Below are positions 1-24,714 of a stretch of 25,079 nucleotides of DNA, one piece after another (position 1 is the stretch's first letter; every line of letters begins with the position of its first letter). A program made the translations under genes and the position numbers. Origin of the DNA: Candidatus Nanoarchaeia archaeon. Lineage in GTDB: Archaea; Nanobdellota; Nanobdellia; SCGC-AAA011-G17; DATDVL01. The notes under the pieces are model-generated. The model had not been told where the DNA came from, searched no databases, and saw only the letters and a program-made list of their open reading frames with translations. The DNA lies in assembly GCA_035288725.1 (NCBI GenBank), contig DATDZK010000066.1, positions 1 through 25,079 on the forward strand, read 5' to 3'.

Positions 1-353
1 AAAGTGGGGATATTTCTGATGCCGTAGAATGGGAATGCCGAAGACAAGGATTAGATCCAAAAAAAGTTGATTGGAGAGAGATGCAAACTCAGGATTTAAT
101 ATGGTTAGCTTTTGGTGGCGGAAGAACCTATAAGACTAGTCCAGATAAATATGCTATAGAATTAACCGTGCCAACAAAAATCACGACAATTAGGCATGAA
201 GTAAGGCATATCCAAAAAGGTCATGTAGAAGATACTTATGGGAATTTATCTCCTAAAGTAAGACTTAAACACCATATAATGCATATATTTAGGGATGAAC
301 CATTGACATTTATGTATGCATCCACAGGTCCATCTTATAAGCCGACCCCCTAA
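1..353 (+). CDS. 5'-truncated hypothetical protein with HExxH (zincin-like) motif
   Basis: The frame of ORF 81..353 stays open back to position 3 (SGDISDAVEWECRRQG...), so it starts before the window. Contains IRHEVRHI. Confidence 0.6.
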   Translation, partial: SGDISDAVEWECRRQGLDPKKVDWREMQTQDLIWLAFGGGRTYKTSPDKYAIELTVPTKITTIRHEVRHIQKGHVEDTYGNLSPKVRLKHHIMHIFRDEPLTFMYASTGPSYKPTP

Positions 354-412
354 TTTTCTTTAGAATTTTTATCGAACCAGCCCTATTAAATAAATCTCCA
401 GCCAATTGCGTG

Positions 413-545
413 TAATCGCTGTTAGTTTCTCCAGAATACTTGGAGGGATTGGGTTTTAGTGCAACGTTCGGCGAAGCCGAAAAATCCAAAGTTGAGAAAA
501 CGGCGTCTTCAAGTGCGGAGCACCAGAAATTAAAAAATGATAGGT
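413..545. repeat. Dispersed ~130-bp intergenic element, copy 1 (two GNA-triloop hairpins)
   Basis: 413-466 matches 4579-4632 at 45/54 nt, followed by hairpins TTCGGC-GAA-GCCGAA (467-481) and GTGC-GGA-GCAC (513-523). Confidence 0.8.
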
Positions 546-590
546 TTTGGGCGTTCCACTAAGTTAGCCTCTTCTGAGTAGTAAAATATA

Positions 591-604
591 GAAAACTTTA
601 TAAA
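591..604 (+). promoter_or_regulatory. Archaeal BRE/TATA promoter
   Basis: GAAAAC-TTTATAAA, with TATA ending 22 nt before the ATG at 627 (leaderless-type spacing). Confidence 0.65.
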
Positions 605-626
605 GCTTAACCTACTACTAAGTGAT

Positions 627-1208
627 ATGACAAGTCAAACACAGGAAGTGAATCTTCCAGGATATGTGAAAAAAGCGATTACCAGCAACCTTGCACTAAC
701 TGAACCATACAGTTGGTTAAGTCCTGGGCATTGGAGAGAATTAGCTGAGCATGTCTATGCCGATGAGATTATTCCACGAGCAGAAGGAACTGATGCAACA
801 TTTCTACAACGTGGAACACAAAACGCATATGGACATGGAAGGCGAAGAACATTAAATGGAATTTTGTGTTCAGCAGTGGTTGATCATAATGGTGTTGAAA
901 GTCATATTCCTAATTACAGAAGAGTCAAAGAAATTTACGAATCAGTTAACTGTGAAAGAGGAGATGATGACTTAATAGTTGGTGGAATTAAAAAAATAAT
1001 CTATAGACATATGATTGACAGAGCACCGATCCTGGAAGACAGAGAACAAAAAATCGGGTTAGATGGATTTCATGAACAGCTCTGGGAAAACGGTTGGATG
1101 GATGAAGAAGGTCATTCGCTATTAAGAGGCGAATTCAGAATCGTTTATGAAGCTCATGCAGAACCCGGTAACAACTTTATTCAATGGTCTGCTATGATAA
1201 CCGAATAA
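627..1208 (+). CDS. Hypothetical protein (193 aa)
   Basis: Long ORF with an upstream TATA box; no recognisable motif. Confidence 0.7.
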   Translation: MTSQTQEVNLPGYVKKAITSNLALTEPYSWLSPGHWRELAEHVYADEIIPRAEGTDATFLQRGTQNAYGHGRRRTLNGILCSAVVDHNGVESHIPNYRRVKEIYESVNCERGDDDLIVGGIKKIIYRHMIDRAPILEDREQKIGLDGFHEQLWENGWMDEEGHSLLRGEFRIVYEAHAEPGNNFIQWSAMITE

Positions 1209-1249
1209 ATTTAAGACGCCCCGCCTTTTAATATTTTCTCAGATTTTTT

Positions 1250-1362
1250 ACATTTGTTAGCGAGCCAGCGATTGCAACTAATCAGTGTTAGCAGACCCGA
1301 CTGAAAGGAGGAGAGCGCAGCGGGGTGCGAACGATAGTGAGCAAGTTGCGGAGGGGTCGCCG
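1250..1362. repeat. GC-rich REP-like/att-like intergenic element
   Basis: GC-rich stretch between convergent AT-rich genes, with short hairpin motifs (GC-GCA-GC) and two GTTAGC boxes. Its end, 1346-1361, is an inverted copy (13/16) of 1823-1838. Confidence 0.45.
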
Positions 1363-1788
1363 TCATTTTTTATGTAATTTCAAATATTCTTCAATTGTTT
1401 TTTTAGTATAATGTTCAATAGGTAATTTTAATGCTTCATTCAGGGTAATCCATACAAATTCCTGTCCCTCAGAATTAAGTTTAACTTCTGGCGAATCTGT
1501 TTTGCAGGCAAAATCAAAGAAGATAAAGTGTTTTTTCTTCCAAAATTCTTCACCATAAACAAATTCTTGAAAGCAAATAAACTCTATATCATAAATATCT
1601 AATCCTGTTTCTTCTTTGATTTCTCTTTTTAGAGCATCTTCGATTTTCTCTCTAAGTTCAACATGACCACCAGGAATTACATATTTATCTCTCCATTTGT
1701 GAGATTTCATTAAGAAGATTTTGCCTGCCGAATTGAAGATTAATGCACCGCAAGTTGGTTCTGGATATTGTTGTTCTGTCATAATCAT
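1363..1788 (-). CDS. NUDIX hydrolase (true start may be 1782)
   Basis: Nudix box GGHVELREKIEDALKREIKEETGL fits GX5EX7REUXEEXGU. A TATA box (plus-strand 1806-1813) favours the second ATG. Confidence 0.92.
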   Translation of the reverse strand: MIMTEQQYPEPTCGALIFNSAGKIFLMKSHKWRDKYVIPGGHVELREKIEDALKREIKEETGLDIYDIEFICFQEFVYGEEFWKKKHFIFFDFACKTDSPEVKLNSEGQEFVWITLNEALKLPIEHYTKKTIEEYLKLHKK

Positions 1789-1844
1789 TGATTATTTAAT
1801 GGAAGTTATAAATGTATCTAAAGGCGACCCCGTAGCAATTTCAC

Positions 1845-1919
1845 TTAACAGTTAATATGCGAATTCCATCATCTCCGAAACTTCTGGGCGTTTTCGTGCC
1901 ATATCCAGAAATTTTGTCA
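1845..1919. repeat. 75-bp direct repeat, copy 1 (attI-like site)
   Basis: 69/75 identical to 5089-5163. On the minus strand it ends in GTTAAGT (GTTRRRY). It lies between the divergent integrase and NUDIX genes. Confidence 0.85.
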
Positions 1920-1998
1920 TAAAAAAAGTGATACTTTTCGGGAATAGTGTAAAAATTCCGGATTTATCAAAGCAAGGCATATTAAGCTCCTTGGCTAT

Positions 1999-2487
1999 AT
2001 GGTGGTCATGGATGTCCTTGAGAAAGTGAAAAAGGAGATGTTGAGAAGAAGATACTCTGCAAGGACAATAGCAACCTACTTGAACTGCGTAAGGAGCTTC
2101 ATAAAAGCAAACCATAAGGATACAAGAAAGTACAGCAAGACAGATGTCAGGGAATTCCTGGAAAAACTAGCTGAAAAAGGGGCTTCAGGTAGCACAATAA
2201 ACGTCAACCTGCAGGCATTAAAATTTATGCTGGAATATGCATTAAACAAGCGTGTATGGATCGATATAAGATATAGCAAGAACAACAGGAAAAGGCTCCC
2301 TGAAATACTGGCATATGATGAAGTAAAAATGCTGTTTAGCACTATAAAAAACGAAAAACACCTTATCATGGTGCAGCTGCTTTACGGTGCAGGCCTGCGT
2401 GTATCCGAATTGCTTAACCTGAAAAAAATGGATTTTGTACTGGATCAATGCTATGGATGGGTCAGAAAAATACCGCCACAGTTGTAA
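1999..2487 (+). pseudogene. C-terminally truncated integron-integrase-like/XerD-like tyrosine recombinase
   Basis: SAM-like N-domain (RRRYSARTIATYLNCVRSF) and first catalytic box LLYGAGLRVSE. The frame ends at WVRK-IPPQL, where the catalytic Lys loop would follow; the HxxR and Tyr boxes are absent. Confidence 0.85.
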
Positions 2488-2500
2488 GTGCACGTTTTAA

Positions 2501-2514
2501 CGAAAGTTTTAAAT
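2501..2514 (+). promoter_or_regulatory. BRE/TATA promoter of the Fic gene
   Basis: CGAAAG-TTTTAAAT, 23 nt before ATG 2538. Confidence 0.55.
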
Positions 2515-2537
2515 AGTGGCGTGCCCATACATAGGTT

Positions 2538-3479
2538 ATGGCTTATGTTGAAACAATAAAGAGAGGAAATAAGGAATATTATTACCTTACTAAGAATCTT
2601 CGGGTTGGTATTAACAAATGGAAGAAGATTAGGGTGTATATCGGAGATAAGAAACCAACAAAATCTGAAATCCAGAAATATGCTAAAGAGATTGAGAAGC
2701 AGGTTGAGGAGGGAGGGTTCAAAAAATCAGAATACTCTTATCTTGGTGAGGAAGATGCCGAAACACTCCAGGATCTTAAAGAAGGCTATAAGGAGTGGTT
2801 AAAGAAAACCCCGGAAAGCCTCAAAAACAAGTTCTATGATGATTTTGTAATTCGGTTTACCTATCATAGCAATGCCATTGAAGGGAATAGGCTTACTCTG
2901 CGGCAAACAGCCCTTATTCTTAAAGATAAAGTTATTCCCTCTGGCGTACTGGCATCTGATTATCATGAAGCTGTAAACGGAAAGGAGTGTTTAGAATTTC
3001 TGAAAGAGCACAAAGGAGAACTAAACAGCAGATTATTGGAGAAAGTAAATGGAATTTTAACCAAGAACACTGATATTGTTTATGGGGGAAGAATTCGTTT
3101 TTTTGATGTTAAAATTGAAGGTTCTAAGCACGTCCCGCCTCCAAACGAAGAAGTGAAAAGGCATTTGCTAAACATGTATAAGTGGTATAGCGCCAATAAG
3201 AATAGATTGCACCCATTCGAGCTTGCAGCAATGATTCATGCTAAGTTAACTTGGGTTCATCCGTTTGAAGATGGCAACGGAAGGACATCTAGGACGATTA
3301 TGAACTGGATTTTGATGAAGAATGGTTATCCTATGTTCTTTATCCCGTTTGAAAAGCGAGAAGAGTATTACATGGCTTTGGAGGAAGCTGACAAAGAGAA
3401 TTTTAAGGCGTATATGGCCAGAATGTTGCGGTTGATTATAGACCAAGTAAGAAGTTACGGGCACAAGGAGAAGAAATAA
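2538..3479 (+). CDS. Fic-domain protein (class II type, internal inhibitory motif)
   Basis: Complete Fic motif HPFEDGNGRTSR and an upstream SNAIEG matching (S/T)xxxE(G/N). Confidence 0.92.
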   Translation: MAYVETIKRGNKEYYYLTKNLRVGINKWKKIRVYIGDKKPTKSEIQKYAKEIEKQVEEGGFKKSEYSYLGEEDAETLQDLKEGYKEWLKKTPESLKNKFYDDFVIRFTYHSNAIEGNRLTLRQTALILKDKVIPSGVLASDYHEAVNGKECLEFLKEHKGELNSRLLEKVNGILTKNTDIVYGGRIRFFDVKIEGSKHVPPPNEEVKRHLLNMYKWYSANKNRLHPFELAAMIHAKLTWVHPFEDGNGRTSRTIMNWILMKNGYPMFFIPFEKREEYYMALEEADKENFKAYMARMLRLIIDQVRSYGHKEKK

Positions 3480-3577
3480 GAGTAGTATATGGGCACAGAG
3501 CAGGATTAGTTATTATATTTAAGGCAAAACTGGAATATTTATATATAATTAGATTATACATTATGATAGGTAACACC

Positions 3578-3802
3578 ATGGAACAATTCGAGGCAATCCC
3601 GAAAAAATGGGGCAATTCATTAGGCATAACAATACCATCCGACATCGCAGAGCAGGAGAACATACAGCCGCAAAAGAAAATAACTGTATTGGTTATAGGG
3701 AACAAGCAGAAGCAACTTAAAAAGATGTTTGGAACCTTGAAGCTGAAAAAACCAACGCAGCAAGTAATGGATGAAATAGATGAAGGGTATGACAAACACT
3801 GA
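3578..3802 (+). CDS. vapB: AbrB/MazE/SpoVT-type antitoxin (VapB-like)
   Basis: KKWGNSLGITIP signature; overlaps the start of a PIN gene. The alternative start is 3563. Confidence 0.85.
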   Translation: MEQFEAIPKKWGNSLGITIPSDIAEQENIQPQKKITVLVIGNKQKQLKKMFGTLKLKKPTQQVMDEIDEGYDKH

Positions 3803-4165
3803 AATATTCTTTTGCGACACCTACGCATTGATAGAAATAGTCGGTGGAAATCCAAGCTATAAAAAATACCTGTCATCTTCACTGATTACCTCTGATTATA
3901 ACCTAATGGAGATGTACTATGCATTCTTGAGAGACTGCTGGGCCAGCAGACAGCGGATAAATATTTTGACCAATGGAGTAAATTTCTTGTGCAGATTCCG
4001 CTCGAAACAATAAAACAGGCAATGGTTTTCAGGCTTGCGAACAAAAAAGAGGATCTAAGCTATGTGGATTGTATAGGATATGCTTTTTCCCAGCAAAATC
4101 TGATAAAGTTTCTGACCGGAGACAGGAGATTCGAAAGCAAAATAGGGGTGGAGTTCGTCAAATAA
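3789..4165 (+). pseudogene. vapC: PIN-domain toxin (VapC-like), frameshifted near 3928-3940
   Basis: The N-half has FFCDTYALIE. The C-half is in the -1 frame: LGQQTADKYF...LSYVDCIGYA...FLTGDRRF...EFVK*, stop at 4163-4165. Confidence 0.85.
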
Positions 4166-4188
4166 AATTGAACTTATTCTTTTGGTCT

Positions 4189-4551
4189 ATGGATTTTTAC
4201 GATTTGTTCAAACCATATTCTCCTGAAATTAGGGGAGATTTAGAAGCATACTTGCGTGAGCATGATGGAAGTAGCGCCAGCAACCTTTTTTATGGACCAG
4301 AATATTTTTTGGTTATAAAAGATAAAAGGTGGATGGTTCCTGGCCAGACTTGGATAAGGGTTAATCAAAGTTCAGTTCCAGATATTGCTTATGTAGTTAA
4401 TTCTGATTTTATGTTAGAAAGTAGTGGCCGAGGGAAAGACAATATGAGTTGTGTCGGCGCTACGAGAGGAGTTTATGATCCTTCTAAAGCATTAATAAGA
4501 AAGGCATGGTCAATTTTGGGTTTGAACCTTAATCCGCCGGCCAGAACGTAA
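4189..4551 (+). CDS. Hypothetical protein (120 aa)
   Basis: The track ORF 4069..4551 overlaps the PIN C-terminus; ATG 4189 is the first start clear of it. Confidence 0.55.
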   Translation: MDFYDLFKPYSPEIRGDLEAYLREHDGSSASNLFYGPEYFLVIKDKRWMVPGQTWIRVNQSSVPDIAYVVNSDFMLESSGRGKDNMSCVGATRGVYDPSKALIRKAWSILGLNLNPPART

Positions 4552-4578
4552 TAGGGAGCACGATTTTTTAATTGAGTT

Positions 4579-4713
4579 TAATCGCTGTTAATCTCTCCCG
4601 AATACTTGCAGGGACTAAAATTTAGTGCAACGATGCCGAAGGCAAAATTTTAGAGTTTTTGTGGGCAAAATTATATCTAGCACGAAGTGCCTTAAATGAA
4701 AAATAATAAAGGG
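4579..4713. repeat. Dispersed ~130-bp intergenic element, copy 2
   Basis: Homologous to 413-545; hairpins TGCC-GAA-GGCA (4634-4644) and GCAC-GAA-GTGC (4680-4690). Confidence 0.8.
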
Positions 4714-4719
4714 CAAGAA

Positions 4720-5001
4720 TTAAAGTTTATGATAAAATTGTACAGCGACTGGAAAACCATTTTGATAACTTTCGCCGGGATTTCCAATAACATAAGCATT
4801 AGCAGGTTCAGGTTTTTCTAATTCAGCCACTAAATCTCCAACTTTGTGAAATTTGTCAGTTGGTATCCTAAGAACTTGTGGAAGACCAACAGCTAATGCG
4901 TGAACAGGTTTTTGTTCTGTTCTTATTGTTCCATCTAGATTTTGAAATCTTAATGATTCATACAAAATGTTTTCCTTCAATACTAATTCTGAAAGTTCCA
5001 T
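4720..5001 (-). CDS. Small hypothetical protein (93 aa)
   Basis: ORF with a minus-strand AGAAAGATTTATATAC promoter at 5025-5040. Confidence 0.65.
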   Translation of the reverse strand: MELSELVLKENILYESLRFQNLDGTIRTEQKPVHALAVGLPQVLRIPTDKFHKVGDLVAELEKPEPANAYVIGNPGESYQNGFPVAVQFYHKL

Positions 5002-5088
5002 ATTATATTTACAACTATTAAGTAGTATATAAATCTTTCTGTTAGTAGATTCTTGCTCCTTTCACTATTTTGCCCGCAAAAATTGAAT

Positions 5089-5163
5089 TTAACAGTTAAT
5101 ATGCGAATTCAGTCATCTCCGAAGCTTCTGGGCTTTTTCATGCCATATCAAGAAATTTTGTCA
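5089..5163. repeat. 75-bp direct repeat, copy 2 (includes the tuf stop codon)
   Basis: 69/75 identical to 1845-1919; minus-strand core GTTAAAT; 5161-5163 is the TGA of tuf. Confidence 0.85.
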
Positions 5164-6447
5164 CAAAATCTTCTTCACATAATCAATGCACATTCCAGCT
5201 GCAACAGTTGATCCAGCATCCCTGATTGCAAACCTTGCCATGTGCGGAATGTCTTTTTGCTTCTCAATGACTACAGGCTTCATTGGCTTGATCTTTACAA
5301 TTGCAACATCCCCATTCTTGATGAAGTCAACCTTGCCTTCAATCTTCTGCCCTGTTCTTGGATCAAGCTTGTGCATCAATTCTGCAAACTGGCATGCAAC
5401 CTGCGCAGTATGGATATGGAACACAGGCGTATATCCTACAGTAATCACAGTAGGATGGTTCAAGACAGCAACCTGCGCAGTAAATTCAGTCACTATTGTT
5501 GGAGGGCTGTTCTCATGTCCTAAAACATCCCCTCTTTCAATGTCCTTCATCTGTATTCCTTTTACTGTAAACCCTACATTATCCCCTGGAAGCGCTTCAG
5601 AAATAGATTCATGGTGCATCTCAATGGTCTTGACCTCTCCCTTGATTCCCTTGCCATCTCTTGCAGGTACAATTATGACCTTCTCATTCGGCTTCATCAC
5701 ACCAGTCTCAACTCTTCCAACAGGCACAACTCCTATTCCCTTGATATTATACACATCCTGAATAGGCAGCCTTAATGGCAGGTTTGTTGGCTTTTCAGGC
5801 ACGTCAAACTTGTCAAACTGCTCAAGCACTGTTGGCCCTGTATACCAGGGCATGTTTGCAGATTTCTTCACTATATTGTCTCCAATAAATCCTGCAGTAG
5901 GAATGAACTGCACCTTGTCCAGCTTATAGCCAACTCCCTGTATAAGCTTGCTAAGCTCTGCCTTGACATCTTCAAATCTCTTCTGGTCATACTTGGAAAC
6001 ATCCATCTTGTTGACAAGGACAGCAATCTGGCCAACTCCAAGTGTCCTGAGCAGCATCAAGTGCTCTTTGGTCTGCGCCATTGCCCCTTCAGGAGCAGCA
6101 ACAGCCAAAAATGCAGCATCAGCCTGGCTTGTTCCAGTAATCATGTTCTTGATGAAATCCTTATGCCCGGGAGCGTCAATTATAGTGATTTCAAACTTCT
6201 GCGTGATTACCTTCTTGTATGAAAGGTCAATCGTTACTCCCCTTTCCCTCTCTTCCTTCAGGTTGTCCATGACAAATGCAAACTCAAACCCGACCTTCCC
6301 CACCTGCTGTGCAGTCTCCTTCAGCTTTCTCATGGTAGCGTCATCAATCTTTCCAGAATCATACATAAGCCTGCCTATTGTAGTGCTCTTTCCGTGGTCA
6401 ACATGGCCAACGAAAACAATATTTAAGTGTGGTTTTGCTCTTGCCAT
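5161..6447 (-). CDS. tuf: Translation elongation factor EF-1alpha
   Basis: [19 protein letters not shown] and NKMD motifs; archaeal-type N-terminus; upstream GAGGT SD. Confidence 0.99.
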
Positions 6448-8299: not shown

Positions 8300-11098
8300 T
8301 CAGCTCAAGCTCATCTGATCTGGATTCAGTCCCTTCCTTTCGCGAATCCTTCTGATAACCTTCTCCTGCAGGTCACCAGGCACCTTGTCATACTCCTGGT
8401 CAACTAGGTAATAGGTCCCTCTGCCTTCTGTTGCGCTCCTTAAATCCGAGGCAAGTCCTATCATCTCAGCTACTGGAAGCCTGCATTTCACCAGTATCTC
8501 AGTGCCTTTATGTTCCAAGTCTATAAGCTGCCCTCTTTTGTTGCTTACAAGCCTGTTAATTTCACCCATGAAGTCTCCACGGCATTCAATCAGGATTATT
8601 TGGTATGGCTCATACATCACTGCTTTCGCATCCACCATTGCAGCTTTGATAGCTTCGCGAATAGCAGGCAGCACTTGCGCAGGCCCTCTGTGAATCGCAT
8701 CTTCATGCAGCTTGCAGTCCCTGACAACAACTTTAATTTTGACGCAAGGCTCCCTAGCCAAAGGCCCTTCTCTCATCACCTGCTCAAAACCTTCATTAAT
8801 TAGCTCCTGCACTTCCCCAATAGCGACAATGCCTTTAGTGCCATCAATTAGCACATTTTCATTGTAAACATCCCTGATTCTCTTTGCTTCTTTCACAGCA
8901 ATTCCAGCTTTCTCAAGTTTCAGGTAAGCTTCTGCATCTCCCTTTTTCATTTTCCCGCCAGTCAAGACTTCTTCCTTAATTAGATTGTACCATTCCTTGC
9001 TCAATGGCTCAACAGTTATGTAAAACTTGTTGTGCTTGTTTGGGGACTTCCCTTCAACTTCTGCAGAAGGATTCTGGATGGTTTCCCTGTACACAACAAT
9101 GGGCTCTCCTGTCTTCACCTGGAATCCCCTTTCCTCCTTTATCCTGTTTTCAATAATCTCCAAGTGCAGTTCTCCCATGCCATGGATTAAATTCTCCCCA
9201 GTTTCAAGATTAATGGTAACTTTAAGCGACGGATCTTCCTTGCTGACCTTCTTCAGAATCTCAACTAACTTAGGCAAGTCTTGTGGCTTCATGGGCTCAA
9301 TGCTCTTTATTATTACAGGATCGAAAATATGTTTCATGTCCTCAAAAGCTTGTTCAGGTTCAAGCGTTATTGTCTCTCCAGCAAATCCAGAAACTCCTCC
9401 TAGTGCTATGACATTTCCAGCCACAGCCTCTCCAATCTGCTCAGGCCTTATTCCCTTGTACAAGAACACCTGGCCAACGCGCTGGTACTGCTTTGCATTG
9501 TTCAGCCATACCTGCATTCCTTCATTTACAGTCCCAGAGAATAATCTTCCAGCTGCCATCTCCCTTCCGAATTTTGGATCAATTACAATTCTTGTGATTA
9601 CAAATGCGACCTTTCCATTTGGATTGCAGTTGACCAGATCCTGCCCTAATGGGCTTTGGATATCTCCTTTCCAGATGTGCGGAATTCTGTATCTCTGCGC
9701 TTCTACAGGATCAGGCAGGTGATTGATGACCATGTCAAGAATGACTTCATACAAGGGTGCATTCTTCCAGAACCAGTCTGTTATCTCTTCTTTTTGTTTT
9801 CCTGATGTGTACTGCTCAATTATATGCTTGAATGTGATGTTCTTCTTTTTCATCCCAGGAATGCTTAGCCCCCAGTTCTCCCTTGCAGAGCCAAATGCAA
9901 CGCTGCCGTCCATGATGTTTACTTTCCATTTTTCCTTGTACTCATCTTCTGCAATGCGCTCAACAAGCTTGTTGAAATCCAGAACCAGCTTTACAAATCG
10001 CTCCTGCATCTGCTCTGGTGTAAGTTTTAGCTCGTTGATCATCCTGTCTACTTTGTTTATGAATAATACAGGCTTCACTCTCTCCCTGATAGCCTGCTTC
10101 ACAACAGTCTCGGTCTGCGGCATTATCCCTTCAACACCGCAAATCAGCACTATAGTGCCGTCAATTGCTCGCATCGCCCTTGTTACGTTCCCTCCAAAGT
10201 CAACGTGCCCTGGGGTATCAATAAGATTAATCAAATAGGATTGCCCTTCATAGTCATGGCTCATGCTCACATTTGCAGCATCAACAGTCAGCAGCCTTTC
10301 TTGCTCATCCTTGTGCTGCCATGTTGCCATGCCTTCCTCTAAGTTTCCAGCCGCTTTCTCGCTCATCAGCCCAGCTGCTGCAAGCAGGTTGTCAGTTAAT
10401 GCTGTGTTATGAATTATCATTCCTTCTGCAACAAAGTTATGATTATCAGGAATAGTGAAGTCATATACTGTTTCTTCATATGATTGGGAAATAGATTCTA
10501 CAGGAACAAAAGCAAGATCTTCATGGTGGTTTCTGATATTCTGTAGCAATATTTGATTATTTGACCTTACTTGGACCTGAATAGATTCATATTCCATTGA
10601 TAGGCTATTCTTTTCCTTCCAAAAGAATTCTAATTTTCTTGCACAAACAACATTGTCTCCTAATTTAAGTTCTGCAGCTGTTTTTTCTACGAATTGCATA
10701 TGCTCAAAAGTGAGGTACTTGTGTTCAGGCGTTGTTGTAATCCCAAATCCGTTGCGTAGCTTGACAGTAATGGTTTTCCCGCCTTGCAGCTTCCAAGCCA
10801 AATCAATTTTTTTATTCTCAAGGTTTCCTGTTTCCTTGTTGAGCGAAAAAATATATAGGGGATTTTGAGATAGGTCATAGATGGTGTGCTCTTCTTTTTC
10901 CTCAAACTTAGTTCCAAGGCTTAGAGCAGTTTCATATAGTTCCTTTGCAGTCTTTATGCTTCCATTAGCAAGAATAAGCCTGGAGTCTCCAGCTATGCAT
11001 TTTCCATGGTGTATATGCGCAGAAGTGCAGATGTTCCTTATATTCTTCGGCTTCTTCATCAATCTTTTGAGATCTTCAATAGTAGTTGCTTTTCCCAT
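8300..11098 (-). CDS. fusA: Translation elongation factor EF-2 precursor with intein (mature ~734 aa)
   Basis: DTPGHVDF, NKVD, HMGELHLE-like and diphthamide-loop DAIHRGPAQ motifs; intein inside the P-loop. Confidence 0.98.
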   Translation of the reverse strand: MGKATTIEDLKRLMKKPKNIRNICTSAHIHHGKCIAGDSRLILANGSIKTAKELYETALSLGTKFEEKEEHTIYDLSQNPLYIFSLNKETGNLENKKIDLAWKLQGGKTITVKLRNGFGITTTPEHKYLTFEHMQFVEKTAAELKLGDNVVCARKLEFFWKEKNSLSMEYESIQVQVRSNNQILLQNIRNHHEDLAFVPVESISQSYEETVYDFTIPDNHNFVAEGMIIHNTALTDNLLAAAGLMSEKAAGNLEEGMATWQHKDEQERLLTVDAANVSMSHDYEGQSYLINLIDTPGHVDFGGNVTRAMRAIDGTIVLICGVEGIMPQTETVVKQAIRERVKPVLFINKVDRMINELKLTPEQMQERFVKLVLDFNKLVERIAEDEYKEKWKVNIMDGSVAFGSARENWGLSIPGMKKKNITFKHIIEQYTSGKQKEEITDWFWKNAPLYEVILDMVINHLPDPVEAQRYRIPHIWKGDIQSPLGQDLVNCNPNGKVAFVITRIVIDPKFGREMAAGRLFSGTVNEGMQVWLNNAKQYQRVGQVFLYKGIRPEQIGEAVAGNVIALGGVSGFAGETITLEPEQAFEDMKHIFDPVIIKSIEPMKPQDLPKLVEILKKVSKEDPSLKVTINLETGENLIHGMGELHLEIIENRIKEERGFQVKTGEPIVVYRETIQNPSAEVEGKSPNKHNKFYITVEPLSKEWYNLIKEEVLTGGKMKKGDAEAYLKLEKAGIAVKEAKRIRDVYNENVLIDGTKGIVAIGEVQELINEGFEQVMREGPLAREPCVKIKVVVRDCKLHEDAIHRGPAQVLPAIREAIKAAMVDAKAVMYEPYQIILIECRGDFMGEINRLVSNKRGQLIDLEHKGTEILVKCRLPVAEMIGLASDLRSATEGRGTYYLVDQEYDKVPGDLQEKVIRRIRERKGLNPDQMSLS
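10406..10999 (-). mobile_element. Mini-intein (198 aa) in the EF-2 P-loop
   Basis: HGK|CIAGDS...TTPEH...VYDFTIPDNHNF...IIHN|T. Blocks A, B, F and G are present; no LAGLIDADG motifs. Confidence 0.95.
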
Positions 11099-16893: not shown

Positions 16894-19492
16894 GCTTCAC
16901 GCTCTTCACAATGTTCCTGATGTTCAATGTTCCGCCCCATGTCTTGCTCACTTCAAGCCCATCCTCGCCATAGGAAAACTGCACCACATTCTTGTTTGCA
17001 TCTCTTACGCTGTTGTCATACTCCACCTTCATGTCCTGCAGCGCATTCGCAAGCCTTCTGTACAAGTATCCAGACTTTGGAGTTCGCAGCGCAGTGTCCA
17101 TCAGCCCGTCTCTGCCTGTCATCGCATGGAAGAAGAACTCGTATGGATTCAGCCCGCGCTTGAAGCTGTTCTTCACAAAGCCATGCGCATCTGCAGACAA
17201 GTCATCTTTTTTGAACATGCTCAATGTCCTTCCCTTGTACCCTGTAGTGATGCGGTGCCCCATCAGCGCCTGCTGCCCTACGCATCCAGACATCTGCGCA
17301 AGGTTCAGGATCTTTCCCCTTGCCCCAGACCTTGCCATTATCACTGCCGAGTTCCTTGACCTGGTGCTTTGCGCGACATATTGCCCTATCTTGTCCCTGA
17401 TCTTGTTCAGTACCCCCAATGTCTTGATCTCAAGAGTCTCAGCAAGCGTCCTTCCAGGCAAAGCATCCATTTTTCCAGCGCGGTATTCTTTTACAACCTC
17501 ATCAACTTCCTTGTCTCCCTGCGCAATGGAAGCATTAATCTTCTCCTGCACCTCTCGGCTTACATCAATGTTGTCAATGCTTATGGTAAATCCCCGCTTC
17601 AATAATATCTTGATGCCTAGTCTGAAGATGTTTCCCAGGAACTCTACAGTAATGCTGGGCCCATATCTCCTGTAAAATTCCATGATCATCTTGCCTCGCT
17701 CTTCCCCAATTGCATTTGAGTCAATCACCCCGCTGACAAGCTGGCCATCTTCAATTCTGACAAGCCCGTCATCTCCAAGTTTTAGCACTGCATCTTTTGG
17801 AGTTCCTTTTGCCAGGCCTTCATAGTTAAAGTCTTTTGGCAGCAGCATGCTGAATAATTCCTTGCCATTTATTTTCTGTTTGGCAATCTTTGGATCTTCA
17901 ATTCCAATGCTTACCATCAGCTGCGTGGCATCCTCCCTGGTGAGCTGCATCCCTTCTCCTTTAGTGAGCAAGTACAGCCCGGTAACAGAGTCTTCAACGC
18001 ATCCCATGACATTGTAGCCGTGCTTTGGAGTTATCATTTGCGTCTGCACTTCCATCAGTATCTCAGCTTCAGCTCTTGCCTCCTCAGTCTGCGGAATGTG
18101 CAGGTTCATCTCATCCCCGTCAAAGTCAGCATTGAAGGCATTGCACACGCTTGGATTCAGCCTGAAGCTCTTTCCTGGCAGCACGCGGATGCGATGGCAC
18201 ATGATGCTCATCCTGTGCAGGCTCGGCTGCCTGTTGAACAGTGCAATGTCTCCGTCAACAAGGTGCCTTTCAACTATCATGCCTGGTCCAATCTCGTTAA
18301 GTATGACTTCCCTGCTTTCATCAGTAATCTGCTTCTTCTTCCCGTCAGGCCGTACCACATAGTTCGCTCCAGGATATGCTTCAGCCCCTCTCTTGATTAG
18401 CTCTTTCAGCTTTTCAATATTCCATTCATTCACTCTCTCAGGCACTGTCAGCTCTAGTGCAACTCTCTGCGGAATGCCAACCTCATTGAACTTGATTCTT
18501 GGATCAGGGCTGATGACAGTCCTTGCAGCATAGTTGACTCGCTTGCCAGCAAGATTGTGCCTGAACCTTCCCTCCTTGCTCTTGATTCTTTCAGTTAGGG
18601 TCTTCAATGCCTGGCCGCTTCTGTGCCTGGCAGGAGGAACCTGGCTTATGGTATTGTCCAGGTAGGTAGTTACATGGTACTGCAGCAAGTCCCACAAATC
18701 TTCAACGATGATCTCAGGAGCGCCTGCATTGATGTTCTCAAAAAGCCTCTGGTTAATTCTCACCACGTCTCCAAGCTTGTGCGTCAGGTCATCCTCGCTT
18801 CTCTCTCCTGTTTCCAGTGTTATGCTTGGCCTCATTGTCACAGGAGGGATGCTGATCAAGGTTAGTACAGACCATTCAGGCCGGGCAGCTTTTGCATCAA
18901 GCCCAAGGAAAAACAGGTCCTCATTGCTTACCCTTTCCAGCCTGGTCCTTATCTCTATTGGAGTCAGCCTTCTGTCATTCTCCATAAGCGTGCTTGGCTT
19001 CTCTATCTTTATGCTGTACTGCTTTGCCTTGCAGTGCGGGCATTTCCTGATGTTCTTCACGCTTGTGATAAGAAGGGAAATAATGTCGCGCTTCGCATCC
19101 TCTCTGCCTTCTGCATATGCCTTATTAATTCTCCCTCTCCACTTCTCCTGGTCCTTGTCCTGCAGCAATACCTTCCCGCACTCCCTGCACGCGGATCTCA
19201 GGCAGTCAAGAATGACCTTGATGTACTTGATGTGAATGACAGGCCTTGCAAGCTCAATATACCCGAAATGCCCCATGCATTCCTTCAGCTTTCCTCCGCA
19301 TGTCTTGCATCTAAGTCCTGGGTCAATCACCCCAAGCCTGATGTCCATTAATCCCCCGTCAACAGGATACCCTTCATTGTCATAAAGCTCTGGAGTCACT
19401 ACTTTCACAGCGCTCATCTTCTGTATTTCTTCAGGGCCCAATAGCCCGAACTCAATGCTGTCCACGCACTTGTAAACATATTCTTCTGCCAT
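16883..19492 (-). CDS. rpoA1: RNA polymerase subunit A' (Rpo1N)
   Basis: Catalytic NADFDGD, CKTCG...CMGH zinc site, NRQPSLH and TALRTPKSGYLYRR motifs. Confidence 0.99.
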   Translation of the reverse strand: MAEEYVYKCVDSIEFGLLGPEEIQKMSAVKVVTPELYDNEGYPVDGGLMDIRLGVIDPGLRCKTCGGKLKECMGHFGYIELARPVIHIKYIKVILDCLRSACRECGKVLLQDKDQEKWRGRINKAYAEGREDAKRDIISLLITSVKNIRKCPHCKAKQYSIKIEKPSTLMENDRRLTPIEIRTRLERVSNEDLFFLGLDAKAARPEWSVLTLISIPPVTMRPSITLETGERSEDDLTHKLGDVVRINQRLFENINAGAPEIIVEDLWDLLQYHVTTYLDNTISQVPPARHRSGQALKTLTERIKSKEGRFRHNLAGKRVNYAARTVISPDPRIKFNEVGIPQRVALELTVPERVNEWNIEKLKELIKRGAEAYPGANYVVRPDGKKKQITDESREVILNEIGPGMIVERHLVDGDIALFNRQPSLHRMSIMCHRIRVLPGKSFRLNPSVCNAFNADFDGDEMNLHIPQTEEARAEAEILMEVQTQMITPKHGYNVMGCVEDSVTGLYLLTKGEGMQLTREDATQLMVSIGIEDPKIAKQKINGKELFSMLLPKDFNYEGLAKGTPKDAVLKLGDDGLVRIEDGQLVSGVIDSNAIGEERGKMIMEFYRRYGPSITVEFLGNIFRLGIKILLKRGFTISIDNIDVSREVQEKINASIAQGDKEVDEVVKEYRAGKMDALPGRTLAETLEIKTLGVLNKIRDKIGQYVAQSTRSRNSAVIMARSGARGKILNLAQMSGCVGQQALMGHRITTGYKGRTLSMFKKDDLSADAHGFVKNSFKRGLNPYEFFFHAMTGRDGLMDTALRTPKSGYLYRRLANALQDMKVEYDNSVRDANKNVVQFSYGEDGLEVSKTWGGTLNIRNIVKSVKHEK

Positions 19493-23023: not shown

Positions 23024-23124
23024 CGGGCCGGATGGGATTTGAACCCATGACCACTTGCTTGCCTTGAAGCATGATTGCTTGCTTGATAAAAGGCAAATGC
23101 TCTACCAAGCTGAGCTACCGGCCC
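23024..23124 (-). tRNA. tRNA-Lys(UUU) with a 27-nt intron at 37/38 (23060-23086)
   Basis: Cloverleaf GGGCCGG/CCGGCCC, anticodon TTT, G73. Central BHB helix CUUU/AAGG; CCA not encoded. Confidence 0.93.
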
Positions 23125-23126
23125 AA

Positions 23127-23221
23127 CGCCCTAGGCGAGAATTGAACTCGCGCCACAGCCTTTCTTTGGGCCTACTCATGCCCGTGACAGGGCTGTATCC
23201 TAACCACTAGACGACTAGGGC
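23127..23221 (-). tRNA. tRNA-Asp(GUC) with a 23-nt intron at 37/38 (23162-23184)
   Basis: GCCCTAG/CTAGGGC acceptor, CAGCC/GGCTG anticodon stem, anticodon GTC, G73; intron stem GGGC/GCCC. Confidence 0.92.
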
Positions 23222-24593: not shown

Positions 24594-24714
24594 TCCCACA
24601 GGGAGGACTCGAACCTCCAACTTGTCGGTGTCAGCTGATGGTTCTTCCTCCAACGCATCAAGCGCTGTCTGACCATTTCTACAGCCGACTACTCTACCAT
24701 TGAGTTACTGTGGG
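24594..24714 (-). tRNA. tRNA-Tyr(GUA) with a 49-nt intron at 37/38 (24630-24678)
   Basis: C1-G72 and A73 (archaeal Tyr identity), anticodon GTA, short variable loop; TATA CTTATAAG at 24741-24748. Confidence 0.93.

Follow-up and report, generated by a model that had tools for sequence, protein, structure and literature searches.

A putative integron-like gene cassette system with a Xer-like recombinase and dif-like docking sites, one of them at the stop codon of tuf in a nanoarchaeal contig

Integrons are the textbook route by which prokaryotes collect single genes, and they are defined by a special domain of their integrase together with folded attC sites. Accessory DNA is also found at dif-like sites, as in the integrative mobile elements exploiting Xer (IMEX), e.g. 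CTXphi and the gonococcal island, and in the pdif modules of Acinetobacter, which are small, often carry toxin-antitoxin genes and alternate in orientation. Many genomic islands, lastly, target tRNA genes. Published archaeal integrons were found via an integrase (IntI) with the specific domain and bacterial-type attC sites, arrays without an integrase being known as clusters of attC sites lacking integrases (CALINs; Ghaly et al. 2022, PMC9668308). The dif site itself, which serves in the resolution of chromosome dimers by XerA, consists of 11-bp imperfect inverted arms and a 6-bp spacer, and in Thermococcales it is single and lies away from xerA (Cortez et al. 2010, PMC2958812). DPANN, Nanoarchaeota and Woesearchaeota are not mentioned in a review on the tyrosine recombinases of archaea (PMC8371274). 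Here we analyze a 25,079-nt stretch of DNA from a Candidatus Nanoarchaeia archaeon (DATDZK010000066.1, hereafter the window), which is the entire 25-kb contig of a 545-kb, 57%-complete small-genome archaeal assembly. It carries a long direct repeat (D1), one copy of which is fused to the stop codon of tuf. The two copies are probably docking sites (L1, attI-like) of an integron-like cassette system run by a Xer-like recombinase without the integron-specific domain, and our literature search found no description of such a system.

A first-pass annotation of the window had reported D1 as a 75-bp direct repeat and had interpreted it either as attL/attR of a 3.3-kb integrase-bearing element or as a duplicated attI that would make the 3' end of tuf a gene-capture site. 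Overall, this interpretation is partly supported. The repeat itself was readily confirmed, with 69 of 75 positions identical between 1845-1919 and 5089-5163, and as an ungapped match it extends to 96 nt (1829-1924 vs 5073-5168, 86%, BLAST E 6e-27 within 5.3 kb); the window has no longer direct repeat, and a search for further copies found only these two in the assembly. Read on the minus strand, the copies do not differ up to and including ...GAATTCGCATATTAACTGTTAA, after which they continue with GTG.. and ATT.., respectively, i.e. the homology does stop at the core as had been noted, and the residual similarity past it (..AATT...CGGG) is no higher than the general level of the site family described below. 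Copy 2 indeed ends in the tuf TGA (5161-5163).

D1 copy 1 lies beside a truncated gene for a tyrosine recombinase (int'). Among 240 genomes of the order, relatives of this gene form two classes, one widespread (~40% identity to P0001, a 304-aa protein and the closest of the full-length relatives of int', which measure ~300 aa) and one patchy, class A (50-59%). In an unbiased BLAST comparison, the flanks of 30 class-A integrase genes were found to be similar to each other and to the distal part of the repeat. They share a conserved site, ..TTGCGTATAT-GAACTG-TTAt.t.CAAT.., which is situated either directly 3' of the integrase gene, overlapping with its last codons, or, as in the window, 100-250 nt upstream of the gene and directed away from it. 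The copy 1 layout, with an integrase gene, ~60-250 nt and a site pointing away, was also seen in other genomes, and, in the manner of an attI beside its integrase, the distance between the site and the class-A integrase gene is 0-250 nt. These genes are very often located 100-250 nt from a contig end, and five contigs end 0-7 nt past the GTT of the docking site.

A position weight matrix (PWM) was built from 16 class-A-linked sites, and a sequence model (R1) from 38 class-A-linked sites (alignment A3) with the window sequences left out. By the PWM, the window copies score 33.2 and 30.7 bits, compared with at most 8 bits in the rest of the window and at most 14 bits in the rest of the assembly. 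R1 matches 5068-5149 (minus strand, E 4.4e-8) and 1829-1900 (minus strand, E 3.7e-7), followed by a match at E 0.009, all of these E-values being rough, as are those of the second home-built model, R2, introduced below. The gene and the two docking sites, with their putative crossover points, are as follows.

5161 to 6447, minus strand: tuf (archaeal EF-1alpha, 428 aa; Pfam GTP_EFTU 1e-53, plus domains 2 and 3)
5073 to 5168, minus strand: D1 copy 2 (L1), integrase-free, fused to the tuf stop; R1 28.1 bits, E 4.4e-8; PWM 30.7 bits
5109 to 5082, minus strand: core of D1 copy 2, with left arm 5109-5099, central TAACTG 5098-5093 and right arm 5092-5082; putative crossover 5093/5092 (G|TTA)
1829 to 1924, minus strand: D1 copy 1 (L1), integrase-linked, 74 nt upstream of int' and directed away from the gene; R1 25.1 bits, E 3.7e-7; PWM 33.2 bits
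1865 to 1838, minus strand: core of D1 copy 1, with left arm 1865-1855, centre 1854-1849 and right arm 1848-1838; putative crossover 1849/1848

The R1 match at E 0.009 (window 4285-4329, plus strand, 11 bits) is a weak one to the left extension of the family, inside a 120-aa open reading frame (ORF) and on the strand opposite D1, and is probably due to chance in AT-rich sequence.

In the anchored alignment, the conservation of the docking module covers ~95 nt. The left ~50 nt of the repeat correspond to the left extension of the family, which encodes the C-terminal tail of the integrase where the site is 3' of the gene and is also conserved at the DNA level where it does not code for protein. 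Complementarity of the 11-nt arms peaks at a spacing of 6 nt (5.6 of 11 positions vs 3.0 +/- 0.25 in random pairs; 38 sites), and the docking core is a double-stranded dif-like 11-6-11 site. The core of copy 1 reads AATTCGCATAT-TAACTG-TTAAGTGAAAT; the two copies of the window agree throughout the left arm, the centre and TTAA, differ at three of the seven remaining right-arm positions, and diverge beyond.

A repeat with one copy at the end of a gene could also have arisen by segmental duplication of a functional 3' element, with no recombination system involved. Such an element might be a small ORF, as copy 1 has an open 22-codon frame from ATG (MTKFLDMARKRPEVSEMMEFAY), or an RNA of the 3' untranslated or terminator type, as a short hairpin spans the tuf stop here and in relatives. 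The small frame is, however, broken by a TGA at codon 9 in copy 2, and only one of the six differences is synonymous. Across genomes the best-conserved part is the 28-bp core and not the ORF, and the reading frame through the core varies. As for an RNA, neither copy folds better than shuffled sequence (z -0.13, +1.20, -0.10 and +0.14 for both strands of both copies), Rfam yielded only tRNAs in the window and nothing in the contigs L068, L074 and L075, and ARAGORN reported nothing at the D1 repeat. Duplication of a 3' element is, in our estimate, highly unlikely. The same folding values bear on the attC-like hairpin that the first-pass annotation had drawn within the repeat: a pairing ATATGGC..GAA/TTCGCATAT can be written down, yet it is unsupported, because neither copy folds better than shuffled sequence.

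The hairpin at the tuf stop was observed as a short inverted repeat at window 5150-5175, followed by a T-rich run. Similar structures are seen in G001 and G004, and the three differ in sequence (ATTTTG-TGA-CAAAAT, CGCTG-TAA-CAGCG and AAGGTT-ATGTA-AACCTT). They may represent a conserved terminator-like feature.

By employing R1, we found the docking module in 60 out of 151 genomes, with 2-4 copies in several of these. Among 20 extra module copies that we retrieved, 19 have no integrase gene within 3 kb, and the left neighbors include genes for FtsZ (G110, G048), RadA, an S-layer protein, a Rad50-like ATPase and HerA, as well as a ThiI/NFACT-like gene. The latter ORF (L109, G020:C10, ~3124-4110, minus strand) stops at a TGA inside an integrase-free module and is the second case, after tuf, of a module supplying the stop codon of a core gene. 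Within G110, G048, G155 and G033, the L1 copies are identical at 54-73 of 75 positions left of GTTA and at 10-17 of 40 positions right of it, the corresponding figures for the window being 68/75 and 17/40. The homology between copies breaks after GTTA in five genomes and contigs end at GTT, as expected of cassette insertion at G|TT. The 75-bp repeat reported at first is hence one case of a recurring multi-module feature, since the same left-alike, right-different pattern is present in other genomes. It is conceivable, although we hold the idea only tentatively and think it rather doubtful, that the docking module itself is mobile or readily copied and seeds integrase-free sites beside core genes (tuf here; ftsZ, radA, S-layer, rad50-like and herA genes in relatives).

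The sites at the cassette ends (L2, attC-like in role) were identified from the second repeat of the window (D2), 404-482 vs 4570-4647. A sequence-only model (R2), trained on 10 L2 sites from further genomes, with the window left out, and covering one L2 subfamily, gave three matches in the window, all of them on the D1 strand.

4553 to 4657, minus strand: D2 copy 2 (L2); R2 65.1 bits, E 8.5e-19; junction 4582/4581
403 to 492, minus strand: D2 copy 1 (L2); R2 59.3 bits, E 5e-17; ...CTAACAGCGA|TTACACGCAATT, junction 416/415
1248 to 1322, minus strand: weak GC-rich L2-type site at the end of a NUDIX cassette; R2 13.1 bits, E 0.013; ...GCTAACACTGA|TTAGTTGCAAT, ~1282|1281

The junction of D2 copy 2 reads ...AACAGCGA|TTAAAC, or at greater length ...ATTAACAGCGA|TTAAACTCAATT, and its right arm, TTAAACTCAATT, is nearly equal to that of D1 copy 2, TTAAATTCAATT. 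The right arms of both D2 copies conform to the pattern of the family. Near the weak third site, an array site of G146 (L068, 13484-13527) matches 1298-1341 with 91% identity. Outside the window, every L2 match is co-oriented with and to the right of L1, i.e. 29 out of 29 at 11 integrase-linked loci and 19 out of 19 at loci with integrase-free modules. With 48/48 outside and 3/3 in the window, the arrays consist of co-oriented cassettes that each end in a recombination site, as those of integrons do. An arrangement with D2 inverted relative to D1, as in invertible or pdif-like modules, was also considered and was ruled out, R2 placing D2 on the minus strand with junctions that align with the L1 right arms.

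L2-like elements were likewise found in the arrays of further genomes. A site in the complete genome G120, which belongs to another family (L064, G120:C1, 16434-16512), shares 100% identity over 79 nt with window 4579-4657; the identity ends at the junction, ...GCGA|TTA, and the sequences on both sides are unrelated. In G146 and G127, L1 and a site 1.1-1.5 kb downstream have an identical 12-nt right arm and different left arms. G146 also carries an 84-nt site-only unit three times (L068, G146:C9, 10415-10493, 11459-11542 and 11543-11626), once directly after the docking site and twice in tandem. This unit begins with the right arm TTAATCAAAATT... and ends with the L2 left arm ...GCTTAACAAGTA, and it looks like a gene-less, empty cassette.

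In structure, L2 departs from attC, an imperfect hairpin with extrahelical bases in which R''(RYYYAAC) precedes R'(GTTRRRY): the ..TAAC box of L2 is 4-5 nt before the junction and its GTTGCAC box is upstream, which is the opposite order, and RNAalifold detected no consensus base pairs in the L2 alignment (A4). By eye, a stem around a GCC-TTCG-GGC hairpin and the invariant CGTTGCACT appears to covary in L056, L064, L068, L072, L073, L077 and window 403-492 and 4553-4657, through the pairs CTAAAATTT/AAATTTTAG, TTGATTTTT/AAAAATCAA and TTGAGTTTT/AAAACTCAA. L072 was furthermore seen to hold a different, overlapping piece of the element (window 4615-4720, 86%), and L2 elements look mosaic. Another observation concerns L110 (G177:C44), where two co-oriented docking modules, 89-200 and 16988-17091 (both minus strand), are 16.8 kb apart and one is at the 3' end of a class-A integrase gene. 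R2 found no D2-type L2 match between these modules, which are not a confirmed second tandem case; the L2 sites of G177 may belong to another subfamily.

The genes delimited by these sites in the window are the following.

4720 to 5001, minus strand: cassette 1 gene, a 93-aa ORF of no known family, co-oriented with tuf and located between the L1 and L2 crossover points (from the ORF list; no Pfam match)
1363 to 1788, minus strand: NUDIX hydrolase cassette gene (PF00293, 2.5e-19), the first after D1 copy 1
627 to 1208, plus strand: 193-aa ORF of no known family, a reverse-oriented cassette gene (from the ORF list; no Pfam match)
3 to 353, plus strand: 3' part of a 155-aa ORF with an HExxH motif, complete in L075 (2264-2731)

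Each D1 copy had been said to be followed, on the minus strand, by a promoter-bearing accessory gene. The genes are there, namely the NUDIX gene at 1363-1788 and the 93-aa ORF at 4720-5001, while the promoters, TTTATAA / TTTATATA ~30 nt ahead of each ATG, are promoter-like by a by-eye reading only. The array runs past the contig end, as the metagenome contig L075 adds another 2.4 kb with a nucleotidyltransferase-like gene and small accessory ORFs (classed by translation only). Read along tuf, the layout is tuf, L1 copy 2, the 93-aa cassette with its L2 (4582|4581), a 2.7-kb block of opposite orientation (the 120-aa ORF, a PIN-like/AbrB pair, Fic and int'), L1 copy 1, the NUDIX cassette with its weak L2, the 193-aa ORF with its L2 (416|415) and, lastly, the HExxH ORF. 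The duplicated-attI interpretation, with the 3' end of tuf as a gene-capture site, fits this picture well: the site family lies beside integrases, the copies break at G|TTA, and the cassettes carry a second, co-oriented site.

The components of the integrase-bearing block are listed below.

1999 to 2487, plus strand: int', a truncated class-A Xer-like tyrosine recombinase gene (PF13495 2e-16, partial PF00589)
2538 to 3479, plus strand: Fic/DOC-family gene (PF02661 9e-19)
3563 to 4165, plus strand: toxin-antitoxin pair, with an AbrB/MazE-type antitoxin (3563-3802; PF04014 5e-7) and a toxin in two pieces (3780-4013 and 3989-4165)
4189 to 4551, plus strand: 120-aa ORF of no known family, the last gene of the block (from the ORF list; no Pfam match)

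The toxin is PIN-like and split by a frameshift, its assignment to PIN stemming from motifs in the translation, with no Pfam match. The product of int' is homologous to its relatives over the N-terminal 157 residues only. The break comes after ..YGWVRK at 2469, and the catalytic blocks with HxxR and Tyr have been lost. It shows 71% identity to P0001 (~70% across its closest relatives, P0001-P0006) and 32% to the XerA of the same genome, which is encoded on contig C41 and belongs to the widespread class. The Fic gene of the window has 82% nucleotide identity over 1013 nt to that of G099 (L058), which is located immediately after a class-A integrase gene of full length. From this it can be concluded that the integrase-Fic backbone of the window has suffered an internal deletion.

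An integron-type integrase, as had been assumed at first, is not what the class-A proteins are: they have no IntI-specific domain and are Xer-like, and int' itself is truncated before that region. When P0010 and P0001 were aligned to VchIntIA (2A3V), the alignment fell into two pieces, with IntI residues ~211-229 lacking a counterpart, whereas XerA (4A8E) aligned in one piece (1e-35 to 2e-39). In line with this, class-A proteins score 178-199 bits with TIGR02249, under its cut-off of 265, and 214.6-227 bits with NCBIfam NF040815 (cut-off 220), with which the XerA of this genome scores 253 bits. The best solved relatives of the class-A recombinases are XerA. Class A is nevertheless a distinct paralogue, with ~40% identity to the common XerA class of the order and 32% to the XerA of this genome. 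An integrase of the suicidal SSV type, the gene of which contains the att site and is split on integration, is not indicated either. The domains are PF13495 and PF00589 and not Phage_integr_3 (PF16795); in genes with a 3' site, no more than the final few codons reach into the core, and the internal deletion that disrupts int' is at a distance from the site.

Turning to tuf, its product shares 87% amino acid identity with that of G001, a genome of the same genus. To the right of the gene lies a conserved cluster (rpo genes, L30e, NusA, S12, S7 and EF-2), and to the left there are accessory genes only. Coding conservation across relatives ends at ..VKK. The last two codons and the TGA (5161-5163) are inside repeat copy 2, the homology reaching 5 nt into the gene (TTTT[G/A]TGA). 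In G001, G004, G033 and G005, tuf has a TAA stop, other final codons and an unrelated downstream flank. A comparison of the tuf 3' flank with those of relatives had been proposed, and a query across the repeat and the end of tuf matched 40 related genomes solely from the stop codon inward, the tuf flanks of these being devoid of the repeat; nor was the docking site found at 23 tuf loci of related genomes. The D1 repeat is therefore not the native flank of tuf. The genes downstream of tuf in G001 have no homologue in the 57%-complete assembly of the window, and those G004 genes that have one are found there on other contigs, so that neither set marks the point where the conserved chromosome resumes. 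In one further genome (L018, G017:C15, last 30 nt), the contig was seen to break at the C-terminus of tuf (..DYVKKTN), before any stop.

These flanks also bear on a classical island, integrated once at the 3' end of tuf, in which the repeat would be the duplicated target (attL/attR) of a 3.2-kb element (integrase, Fic, a toxin-antitoxin pair and two small ORFs) without any cassette system. In its favor, direct repeats flank the segment with an integrase gene beside one of them, the cargo (Fic, AbrB-type antitoxin) is typical, and none of the accessory genes of the window, including those of the segment, is found downstream of tuf in G001, G004, G033 and G005. However, a repeat that is absent from the tuf flanks of 40 relatives is not a duplicated target. 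It is a site sequence and not a tuf sequence, given that its family occurs beside integrases and unrelated genes elsewhere. Moreover, the 3.2-kb segment is interrupted by an L2 junction, which separates a one-gene cassette from the rest, L2-bounded units continue past copy 1, and other genomes hold 2-4 modules that are identical on the left and different on the right. A single island is, on balance, unlikely. The attL/attR reading of the first-pass annotation is formally correct in one respect, as recombination between the copies would release a circle of 3244 bp; it is incomplete in view of the internal D2 junction, of the repeat not being a tuf target and of the integrase-free copies elsewhere.

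The repeat might, finally, have been produced by the assembly, if two loci of the population had been joined via a shared core. The copies do have an exact 22-mer in common, the assembly is fragmented and 57% complete, and related contigs often break at the docking site. Against this, L075, an independent metagenome contig with 99.97% identity over window 1-3757, contains copy 1 with both flanks and spans the junctions from NUDIX through copy 1 and the integrase to Fic. Both copies exist in the data, because they differ at 13 of 96 positions. The junction between tuf and copy 2, seen in one assembly, is in unique sequence, and only a switch at the 22-mer could be chimeric, which is the very place of the putative natural crossover. 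An artefact consequently seems extremely improbable. The 22-mer of the core had no exact match among viral contigs.

For the cassette system that we favor, the following mechanism may be proposed. A class-A Xer-like recombinase would exchange strands at G|TTA between L1 and L2, like attI x attC but with dif-like cores. What is left of G|TTA would stay with the platform, what is right of it would belong to the inserted unit, and cassettes would carry L2 at their downstream end, on the same strand. Copy 1 would be the docking site of the integrase itself, and copy 2 an integrase-free module that has, with its left edge, taken the place of the native tuf end. The sequence is equally compatible with two histories. 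In one, an array anchored at tuf (the 93-aa cassette, NUDIX etc.) would have taken up the integrase block between cassettes one and two (L1 x L2); in the other, the block would have been added to copy 2 through L1 x L1 recombination, followed by a later insertion of the 93-aa cassette at that copy. In either case, loss of the 3244-bp segment would leave an empty site of the form tuf-L1(copy 2)|TTAAGTGAAATT-NUDIX.

Several points weigh against this interpretation. We infer recombination at the sites, the enzyme responsible and the order of insertion from sequence comparison. The training sites of the PWM and R1 were chosen by a pattern derived from D1 (ATAT-N5-GTT), for which reason only the columns outside the pattern and the unbiased BLAST comparison carry an independent signal. 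Arm symmetry is moderate (7/11 in copy 1, 4/11 in copy 2), and the third L2 site (1248-1322) is weak (E 0.013). Besides, the centres of L1 (TAACTG) and L2 (CAGCGA) differ, which classical two-strand exchange would not tolerate; this argues for single-strand exchange or a tolerant enzyme. The integrase of the window is truncated, and the one other tyrosine recombinase of the 57%-complete assembly is the 32%-identical XerA on C41. With the local integrase dead, any present activity must come in trans. The model does not account for the placement of the module exactly on the tuf stop codon, and a preference of integrase-free modules for the 3' ends of co-oriented genes was considered and is unsupported (~10 left neighbors co-oriented vs 7 opposed).

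Among the described systems, the locus resembles an integron in several respects. A recombinase gene lies beside a docking site and insertion would take place at G|TT, co-oriented cassettes of one or two genes each have a second type of site at the end, site-only empty units occur, some arrays have no neighboring integrase, and the cargo is accessory (NUDIX, Fic, toxin-antitoxin). Unlike in integrons, the IntI-specific domain is missing from the recombinase, which can be aligned with XerA over its full length, the docking module measures ~95 nt, is built around a dif-like 11-6-11 core and shows no hairpin fold in D1, the AAC box of L2 is 4-5 nt before the junction and not in the AAC...GTT hairpin order of attC, and there are several docking modules per genome. 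The system works like an integron yet fails two of the tests that define one, the IntI-specific domain and the attC hairpins. Its recombinase is closest in sequence to XerA (structures 4A8E and 5HXY), and it has the 28-bp, 11-6-11 core in common with dif. It differs in that class A is not the housekeeping enzyme, the genome having a separate, 32%-identical XerA, and in that the docking site adjoins the recombinase gene, is present in multiple copies (two in the window, up to four in relatives) and heads accessory arrays. As in IMEX and pdif modules, accessory DNA sits at dif-like sites in small, site-bounded modules; here, in contrast, there is a dedicated recombinase paralogue, all sites of an array point in the same direction, and there are two types of site, L1 and L2. 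Genomic islands at gene 3' ends resemble the locus in the direct repeats that flank an integrase-bearing segment, one of which supplies the last codons and the stop of a core gene, but here the repeat is not a duplicated target, the segment is composite, and the module is found at unrelated loci in relatives.

With regard to the wider setting, protein relatives of the window are labelled Nanoarchaeota, and the metagenome samples with matching contigs include Hainich H43/H51 runs. The EF-2 gene (window 8300-11098, minus strand) contains an intein within the GTPase domain (Pfam Intein_splicing at residues 42-231). Three tRNA genes on the minus strand (23024-23124, 23127-23221 and 24594-24714) are 95-121 nt long, a length that suggests introns; Rfam called all three and ARAGORN one, with a 4-nt anticodon.

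The locus, together with many relatives in the same order of small-genome archaea, would represent the logic of an integron assembled from different parts, i.e. a Xer-like enzyme and a dif-like site. Such a system could account for the archaeal cassette arrays that have been described without an integrase, and it is of relevance to the origin of integrons. What the window adds is that one genome can hold several docking modules, only one of them linked to a recombinase, and that a module can sit directly at the stop codon of a gene that is both essential and highly expressed. If the module is indeed mobile, a chromosome would have several gene-capture points, served in trans by one recombinase. 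If the interpretation holds at tuf, cassettes co-oriented with this very highly expressed gene could be transcribed by read-through, an integrase-bearing platform could enter such an array like a cassette, and variation between strains should begin exactly at G|TTA behind tuf.

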